Shown: one piece after another, positions 1 to 32,514 of the stretch
Layout of the letters: each line of letters starts with the position of its first letter
Numbering within the stretch: the first letter of the stretch is position 1
Assembly (NCBI GenBank): GCA_052034805.1
Contig: JBPOID010000003.1
Span: 3,502-67,501, forward strand
Origin: Candidatus Tayloriibacteriota bacterium
GTDB lineage: Bacteria; Patescibacteriota; Minisyncoccia; Phycocordibacterales; PALSA-1337
DNA: 64,000 nt
Reading direction: 5' to 3'
Notes under the pieces: model-generated
Database searches by the model: none
Seen by the model: the letters and a program-made list of their open reading frames with translations, nothing else
Told to the model about the DNA's origin: nothing
Made by a program: the position numbers and the translations under genes

Positions 1-2
1 TA

Positions 3-230
3 TTCTTAACACCAGTTATATATCCATCTAGTATTGCTGGTAAATATTCATGGATAATGGCTATAAATCCAATGACAGGTGTAATACAGAATGCACGTGC
101 CGCACTTATAGGAACAACACCTATTAATTGGATATTAATACTCATATCATTCATAGCATGTCTAATATTGATGCTGATAGGTATATATGTATTTAAAAAG
201 ATTGAAAGGTTCTTTGCAGATATAATATAA
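3..230 (+). CDS. wzm: ABC-2 type polysaccharide exporter permease (Wzm-like), C-terminal fragment; 5' end lies outside the window
   Basis: Frame-3 translation ...FLTPVIYPSSIAGKYSWIMAINPMTGVIQNARAALIGTTPINWILILISFIACLILMLIGIYVFKKIERFFADII* is the typical hydrophobic C-terminus of ABC-2 permeases. It lies immediately upstream of the Wzt-like ATPase, in classic wzm-wzt order. Confidence 0.7.
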   Translation, partial: FLTPVIYPSSIAGKYSWIMAINPMTGVIQNARAALIGTTPINWILILISFIACLILMLIGIYVFKKIERFFADII

Positions 231-234
231 AAAA

Positions 235-1497
235 ATGGAAAAAGAAACAGTTATAGAAATAAAGAATATAGGTAAAAAATATAGGATTAATCATGAATCT
301 GGTAGATATATTACTTTAAGAGATATTATTACAAACATAATAATTAGTCCTTTACAATTCCTAAAAAAGAAAACAAAACAAATAGTTGGGTTTGAAAAGA
401 AAGAAGAATTCTGGGCACTTAAAGATGTAAGTTTTAATGTAAAAAGAGGAGAAGTTATTGGGATCATAGGTAGAAATGGCGCTGGTAAATCTACCCTTCT
501 TAAAATACTTTCACAAATTACCCCACCAACTATAGGTGAAATAAAAATAGATGGAAAAGTTAGTAGTTTACTAGAAGTCGGAACAGGTTTTCATCCAGAA
601 CTTACTGGACGTGAAAATGTCTTTCTAAATGGCGCAATATTAGGAATGACAAAAAAAGAAATGGTAAGAAAATTCAATAAAATAGTAGAATTTGCTGGCG
701 TAGAGAAATTCATAGATACTCCAGTAAAATACTATTCTAGCGGTATGTATGTAAGACTAGCTTTCTCTGTAGCAGCACATATGGATCCAGATATACTTAT
801 AATAGATGAGGTCTTGGCTGTTGGAGATGCTGAATTCCAAAAAAGATGTTTAGAGAAAATGGAAGATATAACAAAAAGAGAGAAAAGGACTATATTATTT
901 GTAAGTCATAATCTAGCTACGGTACAAAAACTATGTAGTAGAGTTGTTCTACTTGAAAATGGTAAAGTAAAAAATATAGGTAATACCAGTAGCATGATAG
1001 ATTATTATTTAAATAATAGAAATGATGAAAAGATAACAAAAACCAATAGTAGTTCATCAAATAGTATTAAACTTACAGGTATTAAAATCTTTAATTCTGA
1101 AGATTCAACAAGAATTAAAAGTGGTGATAAATTAAAAATAATACTTTCTTACAGTAGTAATATTAAAACAGACATAGAGAATGTAAGAGTATACATAACT
1201 GTAATAAGTGCCCTATCAGGTAAAAATGTATTAAGACTAGATAGTTATGTAACATCAAAATCACTTGGTAATAAAATAACTCCTAATGGTGAAATAATCT
1301 GCGAGACAGATAATGCAAATCTTATAGATGGAGAATACTTAATCAATACAGATTTATGTGTTAATAATATAAATGTAGATCATATAGAAAAAGCTACAGG
1401 ATTTAATATTGAACCTAATAAAGAGAGGTTTGATTATAAAGAAGATCCAGACAAGAATGCATGCGATAATATGATAAAATTTAGCTTCAGACAATAG
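235..1497 (+). CDS. wzt: Polysaccharide/O-antigen ABC exporter ATP-binding protein (Wzt-like) with C-terminal carbohydrate-binding extension
   Basis: Walker A GRNGAGKSTLLKIL, signature YSSGMYVRLAF, Walker B ILIIDEVLAVGD, H-loop SHN. About 170 aa of non-ABC C-terminal domain, as in Wzt proteins that recognise a modified glycan terminus. Confidence 0.9.
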   Translation: MEKETVIEIKNIGKKYRINHESGRYITLRDIITNIIISPLQFLKKKTKQIVGFEKKEEFWALKDVSFNVKRGEVIGIIGRNGAGKSTLLKILSQITPPTIGEIKIDGKVSSLLEVGTGFHPELTGRENVFLNGAILGMTKKEMVRKFNKIVEFAGVEKFIDTPVKYYSSGMYVRLAFSVAAHMDPDILIIDEVLAVGDAEFQKRCLEKMEDITKREKRTILFVSHNLATVQKLCSRVVLLENGKVKNIGNTSSMIDYYLNNRNDEKITKTNSSSSNSIKLTGIKIFNSEDSTRIKSGDKLKIILSYSSNIKTDIENVRVYITVISALSGKNVLRLDSYVTSKSLGNKITPNGEIICETDNANLIDGEYLINTDLCVNNINVDHIEKATGFNIEPNKERFDYKEDPDKNACDNMIKFSFRQ

Positions 1498-1501
1498 AAA
1501 A

Positions 1502-4500
1502 ATGCATAAAAATGAAAATAAATTAATAAGCGTATGCATACCAACATATGAAATGTATGGTCATGGTCATATTTTCCTAGAACATAGTTTACAAATCTTA
1601 TCTAAACAAACATTCAAAAAATTTAATGTAATTATATCCGATTATTCAAAAGATAATCTTATAGAAAATGTCTGTAAAAAATATACTAATATATTAGATA
1701 TAAAATATATTAAGAATAATAATCCCGTAATCGGCATGTCATTGAATATAAATAATTCAATCTTTAATGCTGATGGTGATTTAATAAAAATATTATTTCT
1801 AGACGATTTTCTATATGATGATAAATCCCTAGAGAAAATAGCTAATAATTTCAATTTAAAAAAAGATAAGTGGATGGTAACAGCTTGTATACATTCAAAT
1901 GATGGTAAGACTTTTGAAAATATTCATTACCCACAAAATAATAAAAATATTCACCTAGGTAAAAATACCATAGGCTCACCTTCTGTATTGACCATCAGAA
2001 AAGACTGTTTGATAGATTTTGATACTAATTTAAAATGGTTTGTAGATTGTGACTATTATAAAAGATGTTATGAGAAATATGGTAATCCGAAAATATTAAA
2101 TGATATTACAGTAGTTATAAGAACTGGTGAACATCAAATAACAAACACTGAAGTAAATAATGAATTAAAAATAAAAGAATCAAATTATTTGAGAGAAAAA
2201 TATAATATTAAAAATAAAAGACTAAATTTAAACAATGTTACATTGGTTGCAGTATCAGGGATAAATCCAAAAAATGCAGTAAAAGCATTAGAAATATCAA
2301 TGGAAAATATCGATTATCATGAGATTTTACTTATTTCACACTATTCACCAGAAAATCTAGACAAAAGAATAACTTTCAAAAAATGTAAGGATACAGAATT
2401 AATGAATCGAGATCCAAAAAACACTAATGATTATAGTAAATTCATAGCTTATGATTTATATAAATATATAAATAGTGATTATGTACTTATAGTACATAAC
2501 GATGCTTATGTATTAAGACCACATAAATGGGATAATAGATTTTATGATTATGATTATATAGGTGCACCATGGCCTCCAAATATACATTATACAAATGAAG
2601 GGGAAAATATAAGAGTTGGTAATGGTGGATTTTCATTTCGAAGTAAAAAGATGTTAAATGCTCTTAATGAATTGAAATTACCTTTTACAGACAACGGTAC
2701 CGGATATTATAATGAAGATGGAATCATATGTGTATATTATAGAAAAAAGTTAGAAGAATACGGGATTAAATATGCTCCAGTATCAATAGCATCAATTTTT
2801 AGCCATGAATTAGATTGTAATGATTCAGAATCTAAACCATTTGGATTTCATAATAACAAAAAAGTTATACCATTTTTATTCTTACTTGTATTTAATATAA
2901 ATAAATTCAGAAAAAACAAAAAAATGATGATCAAAAATTATATAAAGAAAATCAAGATAATAGTTTGGCCCATAGTAAAAACTCTTAGAGCAATAAAAAA
3001 GAAAAAAAGGGAAACTTTTAATAAAAAAAGTATATCTAGATTATTTCCAAACGGAATAAAGACGATGATTGAAATAGGTACAGCAAACGGTGATGATACT
3101 TTAGATTTTCTAAAATTATTTAATTCTAAAGACTTTAAAATATTCGGCTTTGAACCAGAACCTAAAAATATTGAAATAATAAAAAATAATATAGAAGATC
3201 CTCGTTTCAAATTATTTGAAGGAGTGGTTTCCGATATTGATGGTAAATTAACATTTAATAGATCTAGAAATGATGATCCAAACGGCTTGTCTCTCTCTGG
3301 TTCGATAATGAAGCCTAAAAATCATTTAAAACTATGGAGTTCTATATATTTTGACCAAACAATTGATGTAAAATCAATAACACTTGATACTTTTGTTAAA
3401 GAAAATAATATAGATGAAATAGACTTTATCTGGTGTGATGTACAAGGTGCAGAAGAAAAAGTGATTCTAGGCGGAAAAGAGACTTTTAAAAATAAAGTTA
3501 AATATCTTTATACTGAATATTCTAATGACGAACAATATGAAAATCAGCCAAATAAAAATAAAATACTTAAATTACTTCCTGATTTCGAAATCGTGAAAGA
3601 TTTCGGTACTGATATTCTATTAAGAAATAAAAATATGATTTCTAATCGTTTTGAGAAATATCCAAAACTAACCCTAATAACATCCATATTAATAGTATTC
3701 ATTATATTAGATCTTATAATTGGAAGTATGTTCTTACCTAAAGGAATAAGATCTGATAATCGAGTAGAAAGTCCTTATTTTAATCATACACTTAATGCTA
3801 ATTATAATGGTAAAGATTCATGGACAGCCGGTGAATACCCTTTAATAACAAACAGTTTAGGTTTCAAAGATAGAATTGTAAGAAATATAAATTCAACAAC
3901 AACGAAAGAACGTATAATTTTTATTGGTGATTCTTTTACCGAAGGTATAGGAATACCTTATGAGGAAACATTTGTAGGCTTAATCGATAAAGAATTAGAT
4001 TCAAAAAAATATGAGGTGCTTAATGCTGGAGTAGTATCTTATTCACCCTATATATATTATTTAAAAACAAAATATCTTATAGAACATGGACTAAAATTTA
4101 ATGAATTGGTGGTATTTAATGATATATCTGATGTGCAAGATGAAATAACATATCAAGATTGGAAACCTTCTAATCCAAATCAAATCCAATTAATATGGAA
4201 TAGTATTATAAAGAATACAGATTTCTTCTTAGAACATCATTCATTAATATATTTACACGGCATTAGACCTATTATATTTGGCGTGCAGACAAAAAGAATT
4301 AAAAAAATTTTCCTAGGAGCAAAATCTGATACAGATAAGATAACAGAGAAAGATAAAGAATATCTTAACAATAGAGGACGATGGACATTTGATGATAAGG
4401 TTTATGAAGAATGGGGTAAAAAAGGATTAGATCTTGAGATCAAACACATGAATGAATTATATGAATTATGTAAAAAAAATAATATAAAATTATCAATAGC

Positions 4501-4756
4501 GGTTTATCCTTGGCCAGATCAAATCATAAATAATGATTTATATTCAAGACAGGTTACAGTTTGGGAGAAATTCGCCAAGAATCATAAAATTGATTTCTAT
4601 AACTTATTCCCTATCTTTATTGATAATGGTTTAGAGAAAAGCAAAACTGTAGAAAATTATTTCTTACCACACAATGATGTCCATTGGAATAGTTTCGGAC
4701 ATAGAATAGTTGCAAATGAATGGTTAAGACAATATATTATAAATAATAATAAATAA
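1502..4756 (+). CDS. 1084-aa multidomain glycan-modifying protein: N-terminal GT2-like domain, central GT/DUF domain (GNGGFSFRS motif), FkbM-family SAM methyltransferase domain, one TM helix, C-terminal SGNH/GDSL hydrolase-like domain
   Basis: N-terminus VCIPTYEM...DDF resembles GT2. Residues about 520-690 (MIEIGTANGDDTLDF...FGFEPEPKNIEII...ITLDTF...IDFIWCDVQGAE) match the FkbM methyltransferase family. Hydrophobic helix LTLITSILIVFIILDLIIGSMF. C-terminal IIFIGDSFTEGIG (GDS block) and DVHWNSFGH (DxxH block) match SGNH hydrolases. Confidence 0.65.
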   Translation: MHKNENKLISVCIPTYEMYGHGHIFLEHSLQILSKQTFKKFNVIISDYSKDNLIENVCKKYTNILDIKYIKNNNPVIGMSLNINNSIFNADGDLIKILFLDDFLYDDKSLEKIANNFNLKKDKWMVTACIHSNDGKTFENIHYPQNNKNIHLGKNTIGSPSVLTIRKDCLIDFDTNLKWFVDCDYYKRCYEKYGNPKILNDITVVIRTGEHQITNTEVNNELKIKESNYLREKYNIKNKRLNLNNVTLVAVSGINPKNAVKALEISMENIDYHEILLISHYSPENLDKRITFKKCKDTELMNRDPKNTNDYSKFIAYDLYKYINSDYVLIVHNDAYVLRPHKWDNRFYDYDYIGAPWPPNIHYTNEGENIRVGNGGFSFRSKKMLNALNELKLPFTDNGTGYYNEDGIICVYYRKKLEEYGIKYAPVSIASIFSHELDCNDSESKPFGFHNNKKVIPFLFLLVFNINKFRKNKKMMIKNYIKKIKIIVWPIVKTLRAIKKKKRETFNKKSISRLFPNGIKTMIEIGTANGDDTLDFLKLFNSKDFKIFGFEPEPKNIEIIKNNIEDPRFKLFEGVVSDIDGKLTFNRSRNDDPNGLSLSGSIMKPKNHLKLWSSIYFDQTIDVKSITLDTFVKENNIDEIDFIWCDVQGAEEKVILGGKETFKNKVKYLYTEYSNDEQYENQPNKNKILKLLPDFEIVKDFGTDILLRNKNMISNRFEKYPKLTLITSILIVFIILDLIIGSMFLPKGIRSDNRVESPYFNHTLNANYNGKDSWTAGEYPLITNSLGFKDRIVRNINSTTTKERIIFIGDSFTEGIGIPYEETFVGLIDKELDSKKYEVLNAGVVSYSPYIYYLKTKYLIEHGLKFNELVVFNDISDVQDEITYQDWKPSNPNQIQLIWNSIIKNTDFFLEHHSLIYLHGIRPIIFGVQTKRIKKIFLGAKSDTDKITEKDKEYLNNRGRWTFDDKVYEEWGKKGLDLEIKHMNELYELCKKNNIKLSIAVYPWPDQIINNDLYSRQVTVWEKFAKNHKIDFYNLFPIFIDNGLEKSKTVENYFLPHNDVHWNSFGHRIVANEWLRQYIINNNK

Positions 4757-4757
4757 A

Positions 4758-6581
4758 ATGAATATTCTCGGAATATCAGCTTATTATCACGATAGTGCAG
4801 CCTGTTTAATACAGAATGGTAAAATAGTAGCAGCTGCTCAAGAAGAACGTTTTACTAGAAAAAAACATGATGATAAATTTCCTAAAAATGCTGTTAATTA
4901 TTGTCTTGAGCAAGGTAAAATACATATATCTGATATAGATTATGTTGTCTTTTACGAAAAGCCCTTCTTAAAATTTGAAAGAATATTAGAAACATATTTA
5001 TCTGTGGCACCATTTGGTATTTCTTCTTTCATAAAAGCTATACCAACATGGTTGAAAAATAAATTATGGCTTAGATTAAATATAGCAAACGAATTAAATT
5101 ATAAAGGAAAAATACTCTTTACAGAACATCACGAATCACATGCCGGATCTGCATTTTTCCCTTCACCATTTGAAAGAGCGGCTTTCTTAACTCTTGATGG
5201 TGTAGGAGAACATACAACAACAAGTTATGGAGTAGGAGAAAAAAATAAAATAAAAATATTATCTGAATTAAGTTTTCCACATTCATTAGGAATGCTTTAT
5301 TCAGCTTTTACTTATTATACTGGTTTTAAAGTTAATTCTGGTGAATATAAAATTATGGGATTGGCACCATATGGTGAATCAAAATATGTAGATATTATCT
5401 TAGAAAATCTGATTGATTTAAAAGAAGATGGTTCTTTCCATTTAAATATGGATTATTTCAATTTTACCAAAGGTTTAACAATGACAAATAATAAATTTTC
5501 AAAATTATTTGGTGGAGATCCTAGAAAACCAGAATCCCCTCTTACTCAAAAAGAAATGGATATAGCCAAATCAATTCAAGATGTCACAGATATTATTTTA
5601 ATAAAAATAGCAAAACATATAAAAAAAGTTACCGGAGAAACAAATCTAGTACTTGCCGGTGGTGTAGCTTTGAATTGTGTTAGTAATGGTAAACTCTTAC
5701 GTTCTAATATATTCAAAAATATATGGGTGCAACCAGCATCAGGTGACGCTGGTGGAGCTTTAGGATCAGCTCTATTTGTATGGTATCAATATTTAAATAA
5801 TAAAAGAGATGTAGATGAAATAAATGATTCAATGAATGGTTCTTATTTAGGACCAGAATATTCTAATTCAGAAATTAAAAAATATTTAGAGACCAATTCT
5901 ATTCCTCACAGAGAACTTTCAGATGAAGATATTCCAGAAATAATATCTGATTTGATAAATAAACAAGGAGTAATCGGCTGGTTTCAAGGACGTATGGAAT
6001 TCGGACCAAGAGCTTTAGGTGCTCGTTCAATAATAGGTGATGCTAGATCTCCGAAGATGCAAGACACTATGAATCTAAAAATAAAATTTCGAGAAAGCTT
6101 TAGACCTTTTGCACCCTCAGTATTGAGAGAGAAAGTATCTGATTATTTCGAAATAGAAAAAAACTATAATAGTCCTTATATGCTTATTGTGGCTAATATT
6201 AGAAAAGAGCACCGTAAAAAAACAGTAGAAAATAAAAATAGACTTTTTGGTATTGATCTTCTGAATGTTGTACGTTCTGATATACCAGCAATAACACATG
6301 TAGATTATTCAGCTAGACTACAAACAGTGGACGATTCAACAAATCCTCTTTATTATAGAATGATATCAGCTTTCAATAGAAAATATAATTGTCCAGTTAT
6401 AATAAATACATCTTTTAACGTACGAGGTGAACCCATAGTGTGTACACCGAAAGATGCTTATATGTGTTTTATGAGAACAAATATAGATTATCTTATAATG
6501 GGCAATTATCTTGTAGATAAAAGTAAACAAGAAAAGATTGATAATGATTCCGATTGGAAAAGAGAATTTGTATTAGATTAA
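4758..6581 (+). CDS. Carbamoyltransferase, NodU/CmcH/SxtI family
   Basis: N-terminus MNILGISAYYHDSAACLIQNGKIVAAAQEERFTRKKHDDKFP and the overall 607-aa length are typical of YrdC/Kae1-like O-carbamoyltransferases. Confidence 0.88.
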   Translation: MNILGISAYYHDSAACLIQNGKIVAAAQEERFTRKKHDDKFPKNAVNYCLEQGKIHISDIDYVVFYEKPFLKFERILETYLSVAPFGISSFIKAIPTWLKNKLWLRLNIANELNYKGKILFTEHHESHAGSAFFPSPFERAAFLTLDGVGEHTTTSYGVGEKNKIKILSELSFPHSLGMLYSAFTYYTGFKVNSGEYKIMGLAPYGESKYVDIILENLIDLKEDGSFHLNMDYFNFTKGLTMTNNKFSKLFGGDPRKPESPLTQKEMDIAKSIQDVTDIILIKIAKHIKKVTGETNLVLAGGVALNCVSNGKLLRSNIFKNIWVQPASGDAGGALGSALFVWYQYLNNKRDVDEINDSMNGSYLGPEYSNSEIKKYLETNSIPHRELSDEDIPEIISDLINKQGVIGWFQGRMEFGPRALGARSIIGDARSPKMQDTMNLKIKFRESFRPFAPSVLREKVSDYFEIEKNYNSPYMLIVANIRKEHRKKTVENKNRLFGIDLLNVVRSDIPAITHVDYSARLQTVDDSTNPLYYRMISAFNRKYNCPVIINTSFNVRGEPIVCTPKDAYMCFMRTNIDYLIMGNYLVDKSKQEKIDNDSDWKREFVLD

Positions 6582-6591
6582 TAAAATAATT

Positions 6592-7014
6592 ATGATCGAA
6601 GAATTCAAAAAAATACAAAGCAATAAAAAAGATTTGAGAAACTTTGGCTTGTTAATTGGATCTATTCTATTTTTATTTGGTGTATATATCTATTACAAGC
6701 ATAATGTAAATTATATTTATATAATATCTCTCGGTTTACTGCTTATAATATTTGGATTAATAGTACCTAAAATTCTTAAACCATTTCAGAAAATATGGAT
6801 GGGTACTGCAATAATATTAGGTTTTATTATTACACATGTGATTCTTATTTTATTCTTTTATCTATGTGTTACACCACTTTCGCTTATTGCAAAAATATTT
6901 AATAAAAAATTCTCTGATTTATCATTCAAAAATAAGAAAAATAAATCTAATACATATTGGGAATGTAGAAAAGACAATGAAGACAGTGAAAATCGACTAG
7001 AAAAACAGTTTTAG
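6592..7014 (+). CDS. SxtJ-like small membrane protein (partner of carbamoyltransferases)
   Basis: 140 aa with 3 predicted TM helices, directly downstream of the carbamoyltransferase, as in sxtI-sxtJ-sxtK-type arrangements. Confidence 0.5.
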   Translation: MIEEFKKIQSNKKDLRNFGLLIGSILFLFGVYIYYKHNVNYIYIISLGLLLIIFGLIVPKILKPFQKIWMGTAIILGFIITHVILILFFYLCVTPLSLIAKIFNKKFSDLSFKNKKNKSNTYWECRKDNEDSENRLEKQF

Positions 7015-7038
7015 TTAATATATAATAGCTGATAAATT

Positions 7039-7197
7039 ATGAATAAAATCAACATATTAAAAGAATTATATAGTTTCTTAAAAGCAAGAAAAAAGTGGTG
7101 GCTTATACCAATAGCCATATTCTTGATCATTCTTAGTGCTTTTATATTTCTCTCACATGGTTCTGTACTTGCACCTTTCGTCTATACCCTATTCTAA
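7039..7197 (+). CDS. SxtK-like / DUF5989-family small membrane protein; 52 aa, not in the supplied ORF track
   Basis: ATG at 7039, TAA at 7195. Translation MNKINILKELYSFLKARKKWWLIPIAIFLIILSAFIFLSHGSVLAPFVYTLF carries the characteristic RKKWWL(I/L)P ... APF(I/V)YTLF pattern of small proteins found next to SxtJ/carbamoyltransferase genes. Confidence 0.6.
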   Translation: MNKINILKELYSFLKARKKWWLIPIAIFLIILSAFIFLSHGSVLAPFVYTLF

Positions 7198-7208
7198 ATC
7201 TAAATCAT

Positions 7209-10152: not shown

Positions 10153-10154
10153 AT

Positions 10155-11695: not shown

Positions 11696-11700
11696 ATAAT

Positions 11701-13418: not shown

Positions 13419-13454
13419 TAAAAACAAATAGATACTATTTAGAAATATAAATAT

Positions 13455-19789: not shown

Positions 19790-19813
19790 AGAGATAATCT
19801 AAACATTATCTCT
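19790..19813. terminator. Bidirectional hairpin at a convergent gene junction
   Basis: AGAGATAAT-ctaaac-ATTATCTCT perfect 9-bp inverted repeat lies between the stop of the + strand GMC gene (19787-89) and overlaps the stop of the - strand MTase gene (19806-08). Flanked by A/T runs. Confidence 0.5.
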
Positions 19814-20714: not shown

Positions 20715-20718
20715 AAAT

Positions 20719-24990: not shown

Positions 24991-25010
24991 AATTTGATTA
25001 TATTATAGAT

Positions 25011-26588: not shown

Positions 26589-26624
26589 AGATATTTAGAG
26601 TATAACTTATTTATCGAAAGCAAG

Positions 26625-28544
26625 CTATTTCTTCTTTAAGAATTGATATTTACCAATAGAATTATACAAAACATAGCCATTATGGCTCAATTCATTTATT
26701 GATTTTATATAATCAGGATTAGAATTTATAGCAATAATATCTGATAGTTTATTAGTTATTCTATTCAACGACTTTTCTCCAACTTTTATGGTCTCTGTAA
26801 TATCCATAAATTGTGAATAATTTTCACTCTTTATAAATGTTACAAGTTCTGGAGCTTGGTAAACAAATATTTCTTTATTTGAAGGTATTTCTCTTATAAA
26901 ATTCTCAAGTGATTTACTTTGATCACTATTTTTATAATGAGATATCCAGCTACCAAAAACTAATTGATAGAATTGCATAATTATTAAAATAATAACTATT
27001 ACTAAAGACAATATTTTGGCTTTATTATTATTTAATATATTTGTAGATAAATAATACAAATTATATGGAAGCATAATAATTGTAATAAATTCTCCCAAAA
27101 AGAAATACCTATAATAACCAACTGTGCGAAGATAAGCTAAAATTATTAGTATATTAAAAATAAATAGAATAATTTCAGATAATTTTATATTATCTTTCCT
27201 CTTTATTCTTATATATAAGACCAAGGTCCAGACAAGAGTAAGTATAAGAGTATAAATAGGTTGAACTTCTGTTATAAATCTTTTCATATTAAGGATAATA
27301 GATTTTGTCAGATCTGTACTATGAGGATTAGCATAGATAGATAATATATATCCCAATGATTCACCATGGAATTGGAATATAATCCATAAAAATATAGGGA
27401 TAATAAAAGCAATTAAACCAAAAAGAAAATTAATAATAAAGATTTTTTTATTATTTAAAATAAATATTTTATTTTTATAAAGATAATATATTAAGACAAT
27501 AAAGAAAGCCGGCAGAATCAATATAAAAATAGGTTTTGTAACTACAACAATCCCTATCAATAAAGAAGTTATAATTGTATTGAATATCTTTCTTTTATTT
27601 GTAGATACGGGATCAATATATATTCTATAAGTAAATTCTAAACTCAACATAGATAAAAATAAGAAAAATAATCCTGGAATTTCACCTAATACATTCTTTC
27701 CATGACCATAGAGTGGTGGAAAAGTTATTATTAAAAACAAAGTGATAATAGAAATCCAAATATTATTTGAAATACTTTTCCTAAACCATAATAAAGAAAA
27801 AATGATTAATAAAATTATAAAAATGACCATAACAATACGGGCGTGAAATAAATCATTAGCAAATAAATCAAAAGATATAGCTATGGGTAAGGTTACTGGA
27901 TAACTAGTGGTTACATAGCCAGAAGATACAATAGTCTGTGGATCTATACGAATACCAGAATATCCTGAAACAGAAAGATTCCTAGCTGTTTGAATGATAA
28001 TACCCTCATCCATCCATGTCGGTGGTGATTCTGTAAGATTAGAAAGAGAAAAATATAATAAGAAAATAATACCTATAGTAAATAATATTATTATAAATAT
28101 TTTTCTTAAATTATATTTAAAATCTATTGTGTTTACAGATGAATCATTTCTCTTAAATATAAATAATCTATATATGAAAAAAGATTCAATAGCGACTATT
28201 ATTCCAGAGATAATTTGAGCTATTACTACTGGTTTTAGAAACAAAAATCCATTAACTATATTAGAAGATAATAATAAATGAATTATAGTTGTATTTATAA
28301 AAACATTTATAATCGAAACAATTAAATACATTAGAGCTTGATGATGTGTTTTCCCGTGATCAGCATCTTTGAATGTCCAATATTTTTGCAGAGAAAAACT
28401 AACACCGAATGCAATAATAAAAGCAATATTAACACTTAAAATATAATGTATTCCTAAATTATCTAAAAAATGAAGAGAAATAAGATCAACGAGTGCTGCC
28501 GTTCCACCTGAAATAATATATTTAATTATAGTGAATATATCCAT
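26625..28544 (-). CDS. Fusion membrane protein: GtrA-like flippase domain + GT-C-fold (PMT/ArnT-like) polyprenyl-phosphate-sugar-dependent glycosyltransferase
   Basis: N-terminal ~130 aa IIKYIISGGTAALVDLISLHFL... with 4 TM helices matches the GtrA family. It is followed by ~500 aa with more than 10 TM helices typical of GT-C enzymes (GT39/GT83-like). Confidence 0.6.
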   Translation of the reverse strand: MDIFTIIKYIISGGTAALVDLISLHFLDNLGIHYILSVNIAFIIAFGVSFSLQKYWTFKDADHGKTHHQALMYLIVSIINVFINTTIIHLLLSSNIVNGFLFLKPVVIAQIISGIIVAIESFFIYRLFIFKRNDSSVNTIDFKYNLRKIFIIILFTIGIIFLLYFSLSNLTESPPTWMDEGIIIQTARNLSVSGYSGIRIDPQTIVSSGYVTTSYPVTLPIAISFDLFANDLFHARIVMVIFIILLIIFSLLWFRKSISNNIWISIITLFLIITFPPLYGHGKNVLGEIPGLFFLFLSMLSLEFTYRIYIDPVSTNKRKIFNTIITSLLIGIVVVTKPIFILILPAFFIVLIYYLYKNKIFILNNKKIFIINFLFGLIAFIIPIFLWIIFQFHGESLGYILSIYANPHSTDLTKSIILNMKRFITEVQPIYTLILTLVWTLVLYIRIKRKDNIKLSEIILFIFNILIILAYLRTVGYYRYFFLGEFITIIMLPYNLYYLSTNILNNNKAKILSLVIVIILIIMQFYQLVFGSWISHYKNSDQSKSLENFIREIPSNKEIFVYQAPELVTFIKSENYSQFMDITETIKVGEKSLNRITNKLSDIIAINSNPDYIKSINELSHNGYVLYNSIGKYQFLKKK

Positions 28545-28554
28545 AAATCTTATA

Positions 28555-29607
28555 TTATTCTCTAATCTTATCTGAAATATTTTTTATAAGACTTTTTGAA
28601 TTAAAATCTTTATTCACTTTATCAAATAAATATTTATTTATAGTATTATCCTTAATATCTATATAATTTGATTTCAATTCTAGTATCTTTTCTGCCAAAT
28701 CTTCTGAATTCCTATATTCAAAAATCAATTTATCATTATAATTACCAAAAATTTCCCTAAAAGTTGTATTTGATACTAATGGTAAACAAGAAGAGGCTAT
28801 ACCTTCTAAAATAACTTTATCTACCCCACCTGTTGGAGAAAGATTTATATTTATATCACTATTCCAATAATATTCTCTTATATTTTCATTTGATACCGCA
28901 TCTTTAAAGAAAATATTTTCCATTAATCTGTTTTCTTTTATTAATTTAGTCAATTCATCATAATAAATATTATCATCTGGAGTAACTCTTGGACCTATTA
29001 TATTACATATGAAATCATGATTTTGTCTCTTTAGAATTAAACATGTCTTTATCAAAGTCTCTAAATTCTTTATACGAGTTATTCTTCCAACACTCAATAT
29101 TGTAAATCTTTTATGTGGAAAATCGTCTTTCTTTTCAAATTTAGAAATATCTATACCGTGACCCATAATAGCAACTTTATTACTTTTAATATTGAAACTA
29201 TCTTTCGATGCAGTAAAGATTTTATTTGAAAAAATAGTAGCAATACGTAAACCCATACTTACAGCTCTATGTGTATACCATAAAGTTATTTTCTTTTTCC
29301 ATATTTTCCATAGAAATCCAGCTAATACAACATATATTTGATTCATATGAACGAATACCGCATCATAATTCTTTCTTTCATACCAAATATACCAATAAAA
29401 ATGTATTAAATATTGAAGTCTTGATTGTCTTTCTTCTTTTCCCAGAGATAAAACTTTTACATTAAAAGGTAAATCGGAATTACCCTTAAAAAGACATACT
29501 ACAATTACTGATTCAAAATTCTTTGAAAATTCTATAATCCAATTATGGAAAAATCCTAAAATTGGATCATCTTTATCTACTTTTTGTGTACAAATTAAAA
29601 GTTTCAT
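28555..29607 (-). CDS. GT-B-fold (GT1/GT4-like) glycosyltransferase
   Basis: Two-Rossmann-domain organisation; C-terminal ...GGVDKVILEGIASSCLPLVS. Confidence 0.6.
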   Translation of the reverse strand: MKLLICTQKVDKDDPILGFFHNWIIEFSKNFESVIVVCLFKGNSDLPFNVKVLSLGKEERQSRLQYLIHFYWYIWYERKNYDAVFVHMNQIYVVLAGFLWKIWKKKITLWYTHRAVSMGLRIATIFSNKIFTASKDSFNIKSNKVAIMGHGIDISKFEKKDDFPHKRFTILSVGRITRIKNLETLIKTCLILKRQNHDFICNIIGPRVTPDDNIYYDELTKLIKENRLMENIFFKDAVSNENIREYYWNSDININLSPTGGVDKVILEGIASSCLPLVSNTTFREIFGNYNDKLIFEYRNSEDLAEKILELKSNYIDIKDNTINKYLFDKVNKDFNSKSLIKNISDKIRE

Positions 29608-30287
29608 TATTTATTTTCAGTAATATCAAATAAATATTTATACATCTCTTCGCCACGCCATTCTTTCTGTTTCTTATCTGGATATTTGAAATCTGTATTA
29701 TTAATGGCTACCACATAAAGATGTGGAGCAATAAAACTGGCAATAGCATCTAAAAATCTATTTGAAAATATGAAAGGTCTTATAGATACAATATTCCATC
29801 CAGCAAACAATACTGTATACTTTAAAGATTCTTTAGTGAAAAAACTAATATGATTCGAAGCCAGAGTTCCTCTGAATTTCGATAATCTAATCAAAGAAGA
29901 TATTTTCGGTATAACTGGCACTCCTAATATTATAATGGTTTTGGAATCTGATATTTTCTTTAATTTTATTAAAAATGAATGCGGAGATAATAGATGTTCG
30001 AGAAGATTATTGGCCCAAATAGCTTCAAAATTATTTAATTTCAATAAAGTATTATAGTCTTCAATATTACCTTTTATTATATTTAGATTATTCTTCTTAC
30101 CATAATCAACTTCATCATCTGTAGTTGTAATACCTACACTATTTTTACCAAAACATGATAAATATTCACCGTATCCACAACCTATATCTAATACTTTCTT
30201 ATTTTTTAGATTTAATATAGATAATATTCTATTAAATACTCTTGAATTAGATACTCTTATAAATCTTTCTTTTATTTTATCATTCAT
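29607..30287 (-). CDS. Class I SAM-dependent methyltransferase
   Basis: VLDIGCGYGEYLSCF motif I, ...NNLLEHL. Confidence 0.75.
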   Translation of the reverse strand: MNDKIKERFIRVSNSRVFNRILSILNLKNKKVLDIGCGYGEYLSCFGKNSVGITTTDDEVDYGKKNNLNIIKGNIEDYNTLLKLNNFEAIWANNLLEHLLSPHSFLIKLKKISDSKTIIILGVPVIPKISSLIRLSKFRGTLASNHISFFTKESLKYTVLFAGWNIVSIRPFIFSNRFLDAIASFIAPHLYVVAINNTDFKYPDKKQKEWRGEEMYKYLFDITENK

Positions 30288-30294
30288 ATATATA

Positions 30295-31449
30295 CTATAA
30301 TAGATTAATAATCTCTCTGGCTATATTATTCGTATCAAAATCAACTATTTTTGCACCGACTTCTCTCGCAATACCGACATCAGTGGATATTATATTACAT
30401 TTTGAAGCTTCGGCTTCTTTTAGAGTCATTCCGTAGCCTTCATACCATGAAGTATTCAAGAAAATATCACATGTTTTATAATATGAAGCCAAAACGATAG
30501 GATCTTTTTGCCAATCTTCAAAGATAATAGAATCTTTTAGACCTAATTTGATTGATAATTTAATCAAATTGTCTTTTTCTTGACCATTTCCAACTATAAT
30601 AAGACCTATATTAATATTTTTATTATTAAATAGTTTTTCTTTTGCAATTTTGAAAGATTCTATAGCTCCATCTATATTTTTCTCTTTACCGAGACGAGAA
30701 ATCATAAGAATAATCTTTGAAAATTGAGGGTATTTATTATGTAAATTATTTTCAGATTTTATTTGTTCAAAAGATAAACTTTTTATACTATTTTCTCCGA
30801 TATCTATAGGTCTTACTGTTATTTTTGATTCATCAATATAATTTTTTATATATTCTTTTATCTTTTCTGATACAACTCTTACACTATCAGCTCTAGTCAA
30901 AGTATATTTTGAAATAATAGTTCTGATTTTATTCAATAGATTAAAGTTTTGGAAATATTTGCTACCTATATCAGTATGTATTTGTAATTCTAATTCAGGA
31001 GATAAACCTGTGGACTTTATCTTGTATCTATTCTTAACCAAAGTACCTACGAGACCAGTTTCAAAAGGATCTTGGCATGTTATATGGGTTATATTTCTCC
31101 TTTCTGATATAAATCTACCTAGTCTTAAAGCATTAAAAATATAACCTAATCTTGAATTAGAATTAGTAGGATATACAAAAACATTGTTAGATAATGACAT
31201 TTCTTTCCACTTATTTTCCCCAGAGTATTCCACATTATTATGGCTTTTATCCACATCATTTATAGACTTATCCACAGTTTTTCCACATTCTTTATTACAA
31301 TCAACATCATTTCCACAACTTTTCCCCTTTTTAGTAAAAACTATTATATTCACCTCTTCATAATTTTTTGCATAATCTATTTGCCTTCGTGCTACTGCAC
31401 TATTTTTATCAAAAATATTTCTATCTGTAGATATCATTAAAAGTCTCAT
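30295..31449 (-). CDS. GT4-family glycosyltransferase with Cys/Asp-rich N-domain insertion
   Basis: C-terminal YEGYGMTLKEAEASKCNIISTDVGIAREV (EX7E). Insert KSCGNDVDCNKECGKTVDKSINDVDKSHNNVEY within the N-terminal Rossmann domain. Confidence 0.7.
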   Translation of the reverse strand: MRLLMISTDRNIFDKNSAVARRQIDYAKNYEEVNIIVFTKKGKSCGNDVDCNKECGKTVDKSINDVDKSHNNVEYSGENKWKEMSLSNNVFVYPTNSNSRLGYIFNALRLGRFISERRNITHITCQDPFETGLVGTLVKNRYKIKSTGLSPELELQIHTDIGSKYFQNFNLLNKIRTIISKYTLTRADSVRVVSEKIKEYIKNYIDESKITVRPIDIGENSIKSLSFEQIKSENNLHNKYPQFSKIILMISRLGKEKNIDGAIESFKIAKEKLFNNKNINIGLIIVGNGQEKDNLIKLSIKLGLKDSIIFEDWQKDPIVLASYYKTCDIFLNTSWYEGYGMTLKEAEASKCNIISTDVGIAREVGAKIVDFDTNNIAREIINLL

Positions 31450-31452
31450 ATT

Positions 31453-32490
31453 TTATTGTTTTCTATTTATTTTATTGAAAATATCTAAAATTTCTTTGGA
31501 GATTTCGGTATATGTATGAGTAAAATTGAAATTCTTTATTTTTTCTACTTGCATATCATAATTATTTTTATCAGAAAGCCATAATACTTTTTCTCTTATA
31601 TCATTTATATCTTTTGGATTAATTGTGATAGCAATATCCTTTATTCTATTCATCAATCCATTTTCTTCTGTAATTATAAAAGGTTTATTATATTTTATTG
31701 AATCAAGAATCATATTTGGACTTATATCTCCGAGAGAAACTAGTATAACAGCATAAGAATTAGAGATTATATTCATAAAATCATCATAATCCAGACTATC
31801 TGTATTTAATATTAAACCTTTTCTTTTTATTTCTTCAGAATCAAAACTTTTTTTCAAAAGATCAATATTTTTCCATTTCAAAACTCTAGTACTTGCTATA
31901 AAATCCTTTTGATTTGGATTAAAGGACTTTTCTTTTTCTCCATATTTATTTTCTATAATAGAAATAGGTACATTTTCCAGAGAATATGGTTTCATCCATA
32001 TATTTTTCTGCCATTCTGTACTGAATATTAGATTATCTACGCGATGAAATGTCCATTTCATCAAATTAAATATTGTTTTATCTTTATTTGACCATTTTTT
32101 ACCATAATTATTATTGGAAATTTCATTTTCTTTGTAGAAATCACGCAAAAGTACTAATTCCCCTGTTCTTTCTACATAATTTTCCCATAGGAAATCACCA
32201 CCGGTTCTCATTATTATTTTTTTACCAAGAATTTTAGCTAATATAGTCGCTGGGATACCTGTACTGAATGTGTCTAAAGCAAATATGAAATCAGATTTTA
32301 TTGCTTTAGGTATTATTTTAAATAAATAGAATAAATGCCTAATAACAGTAGGTAAATTGTTTTCAATATTAAAAGTCTTTATATATACGGTATGTCCTAA
32401 TTTCTCCCATTCTGACTTTATTTGTTCGGCGTATTTAGCGGGACCACCTATAGCTGGAGGATAAATACCTGTAGCAATAAGGATTTTCAT
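31453..32490 (-). CDS. GT-B-fold glycosyltransferase (GT4-like)
   Basis: MKILIATGIYPPAIGGPAKYAEQI N-terminus typical of GT4/GT-B enzymes. Confidence 0.65.
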   Translation of the reverse strand: MKILIATGIYPPAIGGPAKYAEQIKSEWEKLGHTVYIKTFNIENNLPTVIRHLFYLFKIIPKAIKSDFIFALDTFSTGIPATILAKILGKKIIMRTGGDFLWENYVERTGELVLLRDFYKENEISNNNYGKKWSNKDKTIFNLMKWTFHRVDNLIFSTEWQKNIWMKPYSLENVPISIIENKYGEKEKSFNPNQKDFIASTRVLKWKNIDLLKKSFDSEEIKRKGLILNTDSLDYDDFMNIISNSYAVILVSLGDISPNMILDSIKYNKPFIITEENGLMNRIKDIAITINPKDINDIREKVLWLSDKNNYDMQVEKIKNFNFTHTYTEISKEILDIFNKINRKQ

Positions 32491-32514
32491 GGGAATATTC
32501 TAACATAAATTAAG

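Follow-up and report, generated by a model that had tools for sequence, protein, structure and literature searches.

Extent and host of the glycan locus

Which surface glycan does this locus build, and how is the product exported and attached? The window, meaning the whole 64,000-nucleotide stretch of DNA analysed here, contains at positions 1–32490 a gap-free run of 29 glycan-related ORFs, as judged from the ORF list and from Pfam and NCBIfam scans, which confirms the contiguous 32-kb glycan island named in a preliminary description of the sequence. GroEL/GroES follow at 32568–34531. At its other end the locus is clipped by the window edge, and its true span is ~35.5 kb; the sequence upstream of base 1 is supplied by an independent assembly (L001) that is 99.78% identical to the window. 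A plus-strand block (1–14408, cassette A) and a mostly minus-strand block (14367–32490, cassette B) are transcribed convergently. The host is a Paceibacteria-type, monoderm-type CPR bacterium, and the product is therefore not an LPS O-antigen; to our knowledge, CPR bacteria have no LPS acceptor. The surface locus once described as adjacent starts at 53348, ~21 kb away. Its Thr/Ser-rich stalks, put forward as substrates, come down to one protein with a Ser/Thr-rich tail, and nothing links that locus to the island. On balance, we lean towards an ABC-transporter-dependent, ligase-finished surface-glycoconjugate locus that forms one version of a variable region beside a conserved ligase gene.

A conserved, probable ligase gene with a variable flank

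This probable ligase gene, found 0.7 kb before window base 1 and divergent from wzm, encodes a 778-aa protein with a Wzy_C (O-antigen-ligase family) domain and TPR repeats. Wzm and Wzy_C-TPR are found directly upstream in four independent contigs. The earlier statement that Wzx, Wzy, Wza and Wzc are all missing stands for Wzx, Wza and Wzc, which were not found among the scanned window ORFs of at least ~125 aa, and needs correcting for a Wzy_C-family gene just outside the window. The ligase step was also absent from the pathway drawn at that time. Full-length homologues of Wzy_C-TPR number more than 4000, and most are 45–55% identical to it. The AF2 model (pLDDT 81) shows 12 TM helices, a 13th TM and then the TPR domain, whose predicted position is outside the membrane. 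A conserved Arg/His loop is located between TM9 and TM10, and the alignment shows no variation in the motif H386-N-x9-G-xx-G. Foldseek returned TPR matches only. The most likely role for the protein is that of the ligase completing the pathway, with the reservation that Wzy_C sequence alone cannot separate ligase, O-OTase and polymerase. The Wzy_C proteins WsaB and WsfB act as O-OTases, and WsfB and PglL bear a C-terminal TPR (PMC2943079).

Nine annotated neighbourhoods extend at least 8 kb on the 5' side of the ligase gene, and every one of them has a glycan cluster directly against that gene. The clusters differ in content and exporter (Wzx, PglK-type ABC, TagF-like, NeuB and heptose genes). 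In a tenth neighbourhood, L172, the 5' flank is just 1.2 kb long and shows one SDR epimerase. The metagenomic set comprises 41 loci whose 5' flank reaches 6 kb or more; 34 of them carry at least two recognisable glycan genes, and of the 41, long-form Wzt occurs in 12 and PglK-type ABC in 7. The peptidoglycan gene murB follows the ligase in 28 of the 41. Even the closest ligase, at 76% identity, has an unrelated cassette beside it; its sample also contains this organism.

Could Wzy_C-TPR instead be a Wzy-type repeat-unit polymerase, making this a mixed Wzy-dependent/ABC locus? With the NCBIfam model TIGR04370 ('oligosaccharide repeat unit polymerase') the protein reaches 33 bits, short of the 40-bit cut-off, and in one relative a Wzx flippase immediately adjoins Wzy_C-TPR. 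However, the protein is kept across the host's group at 35–55% identity while the adjoining glycan genes change completely, and Wzy polymerases change along with the repeat unit that they join. In 19 of the 41 loci it stands beside ABC exporters, which deliver complete chains, and no chain-length regulator (Wzz/Wzc) is present in the window. We regard a polymerase as improbable.

Another relative has three TagF-like teichoic-type polymerase genes beside the ligase, evidence against protein as the sole kind of acceptor. Like the murB neighbour and a CPR host without an LPS acceptor, these genes also favor a product of another kind, a peptidoglycan-anchored secondary cell-wall polymer (rhamnan- or teichoic-like, as in streptococci and Bacillus) with TagGH/RgpCD-like ABC export and attachment by an LCP enzyme encoded elsewhere, Wzy_C-TPR having another role. 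We consider this rather unlikely. The adjacency of Wzy_C-TPR and a glycan cluster, whatever the exporter type, is difficult to account for unless the two are functionally linked, and neither the scanned window ORFs nor the upstream 4.3 kb yielded an LCP (LytR_cpsA_psr) gene.

The Wzm/Wzt exporter

The window opens on the 3' end of wzm, the ABC-2 permease gene (1–230, plus strand; ORF 3–230 in translation), with the last 75 codons and the stop. The gene starts ~0.6 kb upstream of the window. The 75-codon fragment gave no Pfam detection, and the full gene in L001 (3712–4536) encodes 274 aa matching PF01061 at 69.6 bits. The wzt gene (235–1497, plus strand) encodes an ABC ATPase (PF00005, ABC_tran, 83 bits) with a C-terminal Wzt_C-type domain (residues ~271–397) whose PF14524 score of 30.6 bits is barely above the 30.4-bit cut-off. 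The exporter proposed earlier is thus confirmed for Wzt within the window and for Wzm through L001, and with both proteins present and no Wzx, Wza or Wzc in the locus, the ABC-transporter route is supported. The top PDB match of Wzt is the full-length O-antigen exporter Wzt of A. aeolicus (8dku/7k2t, E 9e-63). TarH and TagH structures are also close, and the best NCBIfam models are TagH teichoic-acid exporters (204 and 189 bits, under cut-off) and galactan Wzt, matches that count for the wall polymer.

[quoted passage not shown] Such fast divergence fits what would be predicted for a domain that reads the substrate or its cap. A sequence search with the isolated C-terminal domain matched no solved carbohydrate-binding domain.

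A two-glycosyltransferase enzyme encoded after wzt

The next gene (1502–4756, plus strand) encodes a 1084-aa multidomain glycosyltransferase/methyltransferase, described here from Pfam, NCBIfam, AF2 and Foldseek. Its domain order is GT-A (GT2), a second GT-A-like domain (DUF5672), a 40-residue helix, an FkbM methyltransferase and an SGNH/GDSL-like C-terminus. NCBIfam gives FkbM at 83 bits and a weak GDSL match. DUF5672 looks like a second GT-A by its modelled fold; in the AF2 model (pLDDT 71) the SGNH/GDSL-like domain is poorly modelled. The top Foldseek matches are the two-GT-A polymerases PmHS2 and K4CP (440–500 columns, E ~1e-15). We regard the protein as a candidate chain-extending and capping enzyme.

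In the slg cluster of G. stearothermophilus, the stop and start codons of wzm-wzt-wsaE overlap, and WsaE, a methyltransferase with two GT domains, produces a 2-O-methyl cap (PMC2943079). As with Geobacillus WsaE in S-layer glycan synthesis, the gene after wzt here combines two GT-A domains with a methyltransferase, and the whole locus resembles the S-layer glycosylation clusters of Gram-positive bacteria. The idea that a methyl cap is read by Wzt gains from this enzyme and from the divergent C-terminal domain. However, in L087 and L088 the cassette of GT-GT-MT, carbamoyltransferase, GT11 and GT17 genes goes with an exporter of PglK type. The same chemistry can thus do without Wzt reading a cap, and such reading stays a prediction rather than a finding.

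Genes of the plus-strand block

The remaining genes of cassette A, all on the plus strand, begin with an O-carbamoyltransferase of the NodU/CmcH family (4758–6581; PF02543 328 bits, PF16861 243 bits; NodU model 130 bits, under its cut-off). It is followed by its SxtJ-like partner, a small membrane protein with three hydrophobic segments (6592–7014; PF19588 29.4 bits) that keeps its position in L087 and L170, and by a 52-aa DUF5989 (SxtK-like) ORF (7039–7197), absent from the ORF list and recognised by translation, which aligns to the equally placed DUF5989 gene of both. Next comes a GT11 enzyme (7209–8249; PF01531 46 bits); GT11 is a family of alpha-1,2-fucosyl/6-deoxyhexosyl transferases. A GT17-type enzyme, one ~642-aa protein in relatives, is here split into two ORFs, an N-terminal half (8246–9358) and a catalytic half (9355–10152; PF04724 82.5 bits). 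In tblastn, residues 1–329 of the 642-aa L170 and L087 proteins map to the first ORF and residues 382–642 to the second, in a different frame. The split is also present in L001.

The rmlC gene for dTDP-4-dehydrorhamnose 3,5-epimerase (10155–10679) scores 245.5 bits with TIGR01221 (cut-off 155.75) and 231 bits with PF00908. The SDR nucleotide-sugar epimerase/dehydratase/reductase beside it (10676–11695; PF16363, PF01370) is below cut-off for every NCBIfam equivalog. A second GT11 (11701–12453; PF01531 108 bits) and a GT2 (12438–13418; PF00535 126 bits) precede a 317-aa protein (13455–14408) with no Pfam or NCBIfam match. Its EDD motif and an N-terminus that appears GNT-I-like by eye suggest a candidate GT-A. 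A 50% identical counterpart occupies the same position in L170, and similar ORFs adjoin the ligase in several loci.

Genes of the minus-strand block

Cassette B starts beside groEL and reads towards lower coordinates. Its first gene encodes a sub-threshold GT4-like protein (31453–32490; PF13439 20 bits, PF00534 18 bits) that is kept beside groEL in L005 and L009 at 67–69% identity. Six GT4 glycosyltransferases score well with PF00534: 30295–31449 (87.8 bits), 28555–29607 (73.6 bits), 22823–23962 (72 bits; missing from the related L009 island), 21699–22826 (152 bits), 16344–17486 (129 bits) and 15095–16336 (94.5 bits, with PF13439). A GT47/exostosin-type enzyme is encoded at 23962–24990 (PF03016 42 bits, cut-off 33.4). 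SAM methyltransferases occur at 29607–30287 (PF13489 43.8 bits; missing from L009), 19806–20714 (PF13489 74 bits) and 17483–18118 (PF08241 56.8 bits). A probable one at 14367–15110 is weak (Methyltransf_25 20 bits, under cut-off), and its positional orthologue in L170, 42% identical, has significant PF13489 (Methyltransf_23) matches. The 327-aa protein at 20719–21702 has a weak GT-B-like C-terminus (PF13524 15.9 bits, E 0.013) and a 77% identical counterpart in L009. One plus-strand gene stands inside the block, for a GMC-family, pyranose-oxidase-like FAD oxidoreductase (18173–19789; PF05199 69 bits, PF00732; TIGR02462 68.7 bits, under cut-off).

Two proteins point beyond the cytoplasm. A GT2-methyltransferase fusion (25011–26588, minus strand; PF00535 91 bits, PF13489 101 bits) has AglJ, PpgS, ArnC and dolichyl-P-hexose transferase as its top NCBIfam models, all under cut-off, and its GT2 part most resembles polyprenyl-phosphate-sugar synthases. 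Beside it, 26625–28544 (minus strand) encodes GtrA639, a GtrA domain (4 TM; PF04138 67 bits) joined to a ~500-aa polytopic GT-C of PMT_2/GT39-GT83 (ArnT/PMT) type, with ~14 hydrophobic segments in all. The GT-C assignment comes from homologues only, which at 35–47% identity match PF13231 or PF02366 and in some cases are fused to GtrA or GT2. The fusion suggests an extra decoration outside the membrane, and its place in the opposite-strand half (14.4–32.5 kb) points to a second, polyprenyl-phosphate-sugar-dependent glycosylation there.

A more radical version, possible though doubtful, holds that the locus contains two independent systems, a Wzm/Wzt-exported glycan from cassette A and a separate GtrA-GT-C-centred cassette B that could serve either a second polymer or direct, PMT-like O-glycosylation of secreted proteins rich in Ser/Thr. 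The convergent transcription and the PMT_2/GT39-like family of GtrA639 agree with it. So does the occurrence of cassette A alone and colinear in L170, L087 and L088, and of cassette B genes without it in L009 (beside groEL) and L146 (beside the ligase). Yet apart from the GtrA domain, cassette B lacks its own exporter and its own initiating enzyme, and its seven GT4-type cytoplasmic enzymes require a lipid-linked or soluble acceptor. The two cassettes are also enclosed by the same conserved anchors, and genes of either kind adjoin the ligase in other lineages.

Enzyme content of the island

Thirteen proteins exceed Pfam gathering scores for glycosyltransferases (three GT2, six GT4, two GT11, GT17 and GT47). 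With the sub-threshold GT4-like protein, the GT-C, DUF5672 and up to three unassigned proteins as further candidates, the count of ~15 was fair. 'At least 7 families' was slightly generous: five are firm, PMT_2 makes six, and a seventh is reached only if DUF5672 counts. The six methyltransferase modules divide into five firm and one weak. The carbamoyltransferase, GMC oxidoreductase, RmlC and SDR all hold by profile scores.

It seems very unlikely that the glycan is an exopolysaccharide or capsule that is released or bound only loosely, with no covalent attachment. ABC-dependent capsules exist, and both the acceptor and the attachment enzyme proposed here are putative. Against this, domain scans of the island found no KpsE/KpsD/Wza-type export or KpsS/KpsC lipid-anchor genes, and a gene of the ligase family stands alongside. 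The usual ABC-dependent glycan has a repeat of one to three sugars (PMC4483657). The presence of at least 15 glycosyltransferases is atypical for such simple repeats and speaks for a product of greater complexity, or for two or more products.

Proposed pathway

The locus most likely builds a methylated, carbamoylated, rhamnose-type surface chain that is exported by the ABC transporter and attached by the conserved ligase. No initiating phosphoglycosyltransferase (PF00953/PF02397) was found in the scanned ORFs of the 64-kb window or in the three genes of the upstream 4.3 kb, and we expect one encoded elsewhere to prime undecaprenyl phosphate. Cytoplasmic GT2, GT4, GT11, GT17 and GT47 enzymes would then assemble a heteroglycan on Und-PP, containing an L-rhamnose-type 6-deoxyhexose partly supplied by RmlC and the SDR. 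Five or six methyltransferases would add O-methyl groups to the chain, the NodU-type enzyme would carbamoylate it together with SxtJ and SxtK, and the GMC flavoenzyme may oxidise it; such heavy methylation and carbamoylation is plausible from gene content. The 1084-aa enzyme, with two GT-A domains and its FkbM methyltransferase, may extend the chain and then cap it. The Wzt C-terminal domain would recognise the finished end, Wzm/Wzt would export the lipid-linked glycan, and Wzy_C-TPR would move it from Und-PP to a conserved surface acceptor. By likeness to WsfB (S-layer O-oligosaccharyltransferase) or PglL, this putative acceptor is most likely a protein. Finally, the GT2-methyltransferase protein may make a polyprenyl-phosphate sugar that GtrA-GT-C flips and transfers outside the membrane, to a side branch or to a protein directly.

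The pathway type is already well known, and different sets of sugar genes stand at the same ligase in related genomes. In the explanation that we favor, the locus would be one allele of a region that varies in serotype-like fashion next to the ligase gene across the group.

Gene content of the island

Window positions 1-32490 are filled without a break by tightly packed ORFs with a GC content of 26%. Pfam and NCBIfam profile scans of the listed window ORFs confirm the glycan-gene island that the preliminary description had placed at 1-32500. A look-up of the exact Wzt protein returned four independent contigs. One of them, L001, matches the window over 11.5 kb at 99.78% identity (25 mismatches, 0 gaps) and reaches 4.3 kb further upstream, where it carries three genes: full-length wzm, a divergent gene for a 778-aa Wzy_C-TPR protein, and a murB-like gene. 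Counting this upstream part, the locus comprises 31 genes in about 35.5 kb.

The plus-strand half of the island (cassette A, 1-14408) opens with the last 75 codons of wzm (3-230, read from the translation), which encodes an ABC-2 permease. The 75-aa fragment is invisible to Pfam and its family was settled through L001, where Wzm is complete (274 aa; PF01061, 69.6 bits). It is followed by wzt (235-1497), with ABC_tran PF00005 at 83 bits and Wzt_C PF14524 barely over threshold (30.6 bits against a cut-off of 30.4). The next gene (1502-4756) starts 4 bases past wzt and encodes a 1084-aa protein in which Pfam and NCBIfam find a GT2 domain, DUF5672, an FkbM methyltransferase and a weak GDSL/SGNH-like tail. 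A carbamoyltransferase (4758-6581; Pfam, 328 and 243 bits), an SxtJ-like membrane protein (6592-7014; Pfam) and a 52-aa DUF5989 (SxtK-like) ORF (7039-7197) come after it. This last ORF is absent from the ORF list and matches the gene after SxtJ in relatives. The trio of carbamoyltransferase and two small membrane proteins (4758-7197, plus strand), known from the saxitoxin cluster, is also present in the relative loci L087 and L170, and in a glycan context it suggests a membrane-associated carbamoylation module.

Downstream of a Pfam-assigned GT11 gene (7209-8249), a GT17-type gene (8246-10152, plus strand) is split into two ORFs in different frames with a 4-base overlap. The first (8246-9358) has no family assignment and is recognized as the N-terminal part by comparison with 642-aa relatives; the second (9355-10152) is assigned to GT17 by Pfam. 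In L170 and L087 the gene encodes a single 642-aa protein. An assembly error is an unlikely cause of the split, which is identical in the independent assembly L001. The cassette ends with rmlC (10155-10679), an SDR gene (10676-11695), a second GT11 (11701-12453) and a GT2 (12438-13418), these three assigned by Pfam, and an ORF without a family match in the Pfam and NCBIfam scans (13455-14408). With 245 bits, RmlC passes the 156-bit cut-off of the equivalog model TIGR01221. The adjacent SDR falls below every NCBIfam equivalog cut-off. Of the dTDP-L-rhamnose pathway, rmlC alone is present in the island, with rmlA, rmlB and rmlD not among its genes. In L170, genes for an NTP-transferase, an SDR, RmlC and an SDR lie upstream of the same cassette and form an apparent rmlA-D set, judged from Pfam domains only. 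The remaining rml genes may be located elsewhere in this genome.

Cassette B (14367-32490) lies mostly on the minus strand. By Pfam, its minus-strand order is a weak methyltransferase, two GT4 genes and a methyltransferase up to an embedded plus-strand GMC oxidoreductase gene (18173-19789; Pfam); then a methyltransferase, an unassigned ORF, two GT4 genes, a GT47 and a GT2-methyltransferase fusion; and finally a 639-aa GtrA-domain membrane protein (GtrA639), a GT4, a methyltransferase, a GT4 and a sub-threshold GT4-like gene. In the profile scans groEL and groES (32568-34531) border the island.

Thirteen island proteins exceed Pfam GT cut-offs. The expectation of at least seven GT families was slightly generous: five are firm, the GT-C of GtrA639 makes six, and seven is reached only if DUF5672 is counted. 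Of the six methyltransferase modules, five are firm and the sixth is a weak match. The profile scans also bear out the carbamoyltransferase, GMC enzyme, RmlC and SDR. Recent paralogue expansion is ruled out, as the GT4 and methyltransferase paralogues are just 21-32% identical, and by this divergence they appear to be old. A foreign origin of the island is unsupported: its GC3 of 0.161 does not differ from the 0.168 of its flanks (p = 0.37). Its total GC content, 0.261, lies below the value of about 0.31 found outside it.

Exporter and candidate cap enzyme

Export by an ABC transporter, as initially proposed, agrees with the presence of both Wzm and Wzt and with the lack of Wzx, Wzz, Wzc and Wza Pfam families among scanned ORFs of the island and the remaining window. 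The accompanying statement that there is no Wzy calls for qualification, because L001 places a Wzy_C-family gene next to wzm, just outside the window. The pathway thereby gains a candidate last step. An initiating phosphoglycosyltransferase of the WecA/WbaP type (PF00953, PF02397) was not found in scanned ORFs of the 64-kb window or in the three upstream genes (4.3 kb). In known systems the initiator and the rml genes are often encoded elsewhere, so this lack is compatible with an ABC-dependent pathway. Likewise, no LCP enzyme was found in scanned window ORFs and the 4.3 kb upstream.

The nearest solved structures to Wzt are full-length Aquifex aeolicus Wzt (8dku, 7k2t; E ~1e-62), followed by TarH and TagH. 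The alignment to A. aeolicus Wzt enters the C-terminal domain (CTD) and ends at residue 347 of 404. A search of the isolated CTD against PDB sequences gave no significant match and no solved carbohydrate-binding domain; its putative membership of the carbohydrate-binding family hangs on the threshold Pfam score. Compared with 17 Wzt proteins of related loci, the nucleotide-binding domain (NBD) is 50-76% identical (67-76% in 15 of the 17), while the CTD is only 9-21% identical. In O8/O9a Wzt the CTD sets substrate specificity (refs 90, 91 in PMC2943079), and the contrast between the two domains is the signature described there, which fits substrate specificity residing in the CTD.

The 1084-aa enzyme was modeled with AF2 at a mean pLDDT of 71, with high confidence for residues 1-715 and poor confidence beyond about 740. 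The top Foldseek matches of the model are the bifunctional two-GT-A polymerases PmHS2 and K4CP (440-500 aligned columns, E ~1e-15); then come GT-A enzymes with one domain, among them WrtF, an O-antigen fucosyltransferase. Given the matches to two-GT-A enzymes, DUF5672 most likely represents another GT-A domain, which agrees with its occurrence elsewhere in fusions with GT2, GT4, GT9 and GT25. A 40-residue helix (458-498) joins DUF5672 to the FkbM methyltransferase in the model. The four-domain form occurs in one other protein cluster only (71% identity), and a 700-aa three-domain form occurs in about 10 clusters. A 682-aa GT2-DUF5672-FkbM homologue (P0246, 60% identity) bears the NCBI label 'Candidatus Altiarchaeales archaeon A3'; either a binning error or gene exchange of an archaeon with CPR bacteria would account for this label.

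The closest described analogue would be WsaE of Geobacillus stearothermophilus, which combines a methyltransferase with two rhamnosyltransferase domains, is encoded right after wzm-wzt, and makes the repeat and its 2-O-methyl cap (PMC2943079). The FkbM methyltransferase of the 1084-aa enzyme is a candidate chain terminator that would add a cap at the non-reducing end. It is plausible by analogy that Wzt reads the product of the 1084-aa enzyme, but not more than plausible, because L087 and L088 pair the same enzyme type with a PglK-type exporter. ABC-dependent glycans usually have very simple repeats (PMC4483657). Set against this, 15 or more GTs point either to two products or to a structure in which adaptor, repeat and branches are complex.

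Wzy_C-TPR, a probable ligase

The 778-aa protein encoded beside wzm contains a Wzy_C domain (PF04932, 66 bits) and C-terminal TPR repeats. Its AF2 model (pLDDT 81, pTM 0.77) shows 12 TM helices, a 13th helix and the TPR region (532-770). A conserved loop at about 308-387, which bears the invariant R322, R336, R384 and H386, lies between TM9 and TM10, as in WaaL. In a 24-sequence alignment that has many invariant positions, R259, R322, R336, R384 and H386 are invariant, and the motif H-N-x9-G-xx-G, which is of the WaaL type, is present. If the N-terminus is cytoplasmic, the model would place the TPR outside the membrane together with the catalytic loop, and such a position would suit acceptor binding. 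The S-layer O-oligosaccharyltransferase (O-OTase) WsfB and PglL likewise have a C-terminal TPR (PMC2943079). Sequence, profile and fold searches of the PDB returned TPR proteins only and added nothing on the membrane domain. Full-length homologues number more than 4000, mostly at 45-55% identity, with metagenomic relatives down to 35%.

A variable region at a fixed address

Nine annotated neighborhoods have a 5' flank of 8 kb or more, and every one of them shows a glycan cluster directly next to the ligase gene on that side, with a different content each time. In a tenth (L172) the 5' flank is just 1.2 kb and holds one SDR epimerase. One neighborhood has NeuB, methyltransferases and a PglK-type ABC transporter beside the ligase; another (L086) has Wzx, FkbM methyltransferases, GT2, GT-D, GT10 and GT11. 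L087 carries the same cassette as the window, with the GT-GT-MT enzyme, carbamoyltransferase, SxtJ, GT11 and GT17, and a PglK-type ABC instead of Wzm/Wzt. L088 carries that cassette without carbamoyltransferase and SxtJ, again with a PglK-type ABC. Three TagF-like genes lie beside the ligase in one neighborhood, heptose genes and a PglK-type ABC in one more, and other mixes in further ones.

A scan of metagenome contigs added 80 ligase loci, and counts were made on the 41 of them whose 5' flank measures 6 kb or more. At least two recognizable glycan genes are present on the 5' side in 34 of the 41. Wzm/Wzt occurs in 12 of these loci, every Wzt being of the long form (423-461 aa), and a PglK-type ABC in seven. 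Downstream of the ligase, murB is found in 28 and secA in 24 of the 41. A response regulator follows the ligase in one relative.

The conserved Wzy_C gene beside a wholly variable donor pathway bears on its function. From this context one would take Wzy_C-TPR for a ligase or an oligosaccharyltransferase that acts on a conserved acceptor; a repeat-unit polymerase would not be expected to behave in this way.

The sister lineage with the closest ligase (76% identical) is L171 (Logan SRR12487013, 396-11052), from a sample that also holds the present organism (contig L002). Its cassette is unrelated to that of the window and consists of a CTP-transferase, an SDR, a PglK-type ABC, GT4, GT2 and methyltransferases. 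The co-occurring relatives thus have different surface-glycan alleles.

At the other border, the MFS-RNase J-SBP5-groES-groEL block is syntenic across related genomes, and glycan genes downstream of groEL are found in the closest relatives only; relatives with 78-83% GroEL identity have none there. L009 has eight genes in common with the island (60-77% identity) and lacks two, and the L005 contig ends there. Cassette A alone is colinear with L170 (42-80% identity), cassette B genes alone lie beside groEL in L009, and similar genes lie beside the ligase in L146. By these gene arrangements cassette B (14.4-32.5 kb) is separable from cassette A.

A gene at 40271-41560 (minus strand) encodes a fusion of DedA (VTT) and PAP2 phosphatase, which would combine flipping of Und-P with Und-PP phosphatase activity in carrier-lipid recycling. 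DedA-PAP2 fusions have already been described (PMC10127716). In four of the 80 metagenomic loci a DedA-PAP2-like gene follows the Wzy_C-TPR ligase gene at a distance below 1 kb, and in L086 one is about 6 kb away.

GtrA-GT-C and the distant surface locus

GtrA639 has a GtrA domain followed by about 10 more hydrophobic segments. After the first of these comes 'WMDEG', in keeping with the acidic motif that PMT/ArnT-type proteins have in their first outward loop. It has no PDB sequence match and no direct Pfam PMT_2 match, and its family was therefore set through homologues (35-47% identity over about 75% of the query) that carry PF13231 or PF02366 (PMT_2/PMT; GT39/GT83, ArnT/PMT type). These occur alone, fused to GtrA or fused to GT2. 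The GT2 part of the neighboring GT2-methyltransferase fusion is nearest to the polyprenyl-phosphate-sugar synthases AglJ, PpgS and ArnC, all below cut-off. By sequence, the two proteins resemble a three-component system in fused form, with synthase, flippase and GT-C. A system of that kind adds sugar outside the membrane, to an exported glycan or directly to protein.

The genes for cohesin-, Ig-, fn3- and dockerin-like proteins had been described as an adjacent surface locus whose Thr/Ser-rich stalks could be substrates. They begin at 53348, about 21 kb from the island, only one protein has a Ser/Thr-rich tail, and nothing ties the locus to the island. The run (53348-64000, minus strand) encodes secreted or membrane-anchored cohesin-like, Ig-like and fn3/dockerin-like proteins, including three paralogous single-TM proteins of about 125-134 aa (57980-59221). 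Surface-locus proteins have signal peptides, and three have C-terminal anchors. The largest (59246-63796) exceeds 1516 aa, has no Pfam match and runs in frame past the window end; the Ser/Thr/Asn-rich tail, the C-terminal ~60-140 residues, is found in this protein only. An S-layer gene was not recognized among the window ORFs scanned, nor in the 4.3 kb upstream. Wzy_C-TPR and GtrA-GT-C are better candidates for any protein glycosylation.

Host and other features of the window

The host is a CPR bacterium. The window contains a bacterial 16S gene and tRNAs, and the related GroEL proteins in the genome collection, with up to 89% identity, are from Patescibacteria (Nomurabacteria, Zambryskibacteria, Paceibacteria and similar bins). 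Such a bacterium would not be expected to make an LPS O-antigen. The 16S rRNA gene (51443-53062, minus strand) is 1620 nt long against a 1533-position model, which suggests an insertion of about 90 nt. No 23S or 5S gene was found across the 64-kb window and pyruvate kinase is encoded just downstream of 16S, so the rRNA genes are apparently unlinked. Between the island flank and the tRNA/rRNA region lie genes for an OmpR-type response regulator and a short histidine kinase (41635-43387, plus strand) and for a second histidine kinase (46153-47472, minus strand).

Comparison with known systems

From gene content and order we infer a glycoconjugate pathway of the ABC-transporter-dependent kind. 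Among described systems, the S-layer glycan (slg) clusters of Bacillales, as in G. stearothermophilus NRS 2004/3a and Paenibacillus alvei CCM 2051T (PMC2943079), would be closest to the locus. The two share a monoderm-type envelope, wzm-wzt followed by a multidomain enzyme with a methyltransferase and two GTs (WsaE there), a Wzy_C transferase beside the cluster (WsfB, with a C-terminal TPR), an rml gene, GC below that of the flanks and a methyl cap proposed to be read by Wzt. However, the locus described here is 3-4 times larger, with at least 15 GTs, and has a carbamoyltransferase trio, a GMC oxidoreductase and a fused GtrA-GT-C. It has no WsaP/WbaP-type initiator or S-layer gene in or beside it and, unlike the slg clusters, is known from its genes alone. 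Relative to WsaE the domain order is reversed (GT-GT-MT) and an SGNH-like domain is added.

With Escherichia coli O8/O9a and A. aeolicus WzmWzt (7k2t/8dku) the locus shares Wzm, a Wzt whose C-terminal extension (PF14524) diverges faster than the NBD, a methyltransferase-bearing terminator candidate and the lack of Wzx. It differs in a host without LPS, lipid A-core or outer membrane, in a CTD match at threshold, in far more GTs than the typical one to three multidomain GTs, and in a ligase with TPR.

Helicobacter pylori O-antigen and general O-glycosylation systems combine a PglK/Wzk-type ABC flippase with a ligase of the WaaL/PglL family. A similar pairing of Wzy_C-TPR with a PglK-type half-transporter, with GT10, GT11 and NeuB-type genes adjacent, is seen in six relative loci (L085, L087, L088, L089, L171 and L173), which fits a donor-promiscuous ligase; the window locus itself uses Wzm/Wzt.

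Three-component extracytoplasmic glycosylation is represented by GtrA/GtrB/GtrC, ArnC/ArnT, GacI-L and PMT/GT39 protein O-mannosylation. The GtrA domain, the PMT_2-type GT-C and the adjacent GT2 resembling polyprenyl-P-sugar synthases match this scheme, but here a single polypeptide contains both GtrA and GT-C, and the GT2 shares its chain with a methyltransferase.

Hypervariable O-antigen and capsule loci lie between conserved genes, such as galF-gnd in Enterobacteria. The present region has a comparable fixed address, with ligase-murB-secA on one side and often groESL or SBP5-RNase J-MFS on the other, and comparable wholesale cassette replacement, even among close relatives. In contrast to those loci, the anchor is the ligase itself, and three export mechanisms alternate at one address.

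Significance

Searches of the literature for O-antigen ligases, S-layer glycosylation or DUF5672 in Patescibacteria gave no relevant paper and no description of a ligase-anchored variable locus in this group. For one Parcubacterium, many GTs and rml genes are noted in a general remark only (PMC5220378). No new mechanism is demonstrated here, and every part comes from a known family. We propose a concrete pathway of an exporter, a candidate cap enzyme, a ligase and a GT-C step outside the membrane. The locus that encodes it is one allele of a region that varies beside a ligase gene that is conserved. Through the ligase, surface-glycan loci can therefore be located and typed across thousands of CPR metagenome bins, and the ligase is also a candidate enzyme for glyco-engineering tests.

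CPR/Patescibacteria are mostly uncultured, have genomes of around 1 Mb and are thought to live attached to other cells, so that the surface is where their biology happens. For so small a genome, about 35 kb and 31 genes are a large investment. Wzy_C-TPR may define a CPR-wide general glycosylation system with serotype-like cassettes. We consider it possible, at somewhat less than an even chance, that Wzy_C-TPR is a lineage-wide, donor-promiscuous ligase/O-OTase and the core of a general surface-glycosylation system of Paceibacteria. It would transfer Und-PP glycans delivered by Wzm/Wzt, a PglK-type ABC or Wzx to one conserved acceptor by way of its outward TPR, with the cassette exchanged in a serotype-like manner even between co-occurring sister species. 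If true, this would give episymbiotic, tiny-genome bacteria a rapidly diversifying glycan coat.
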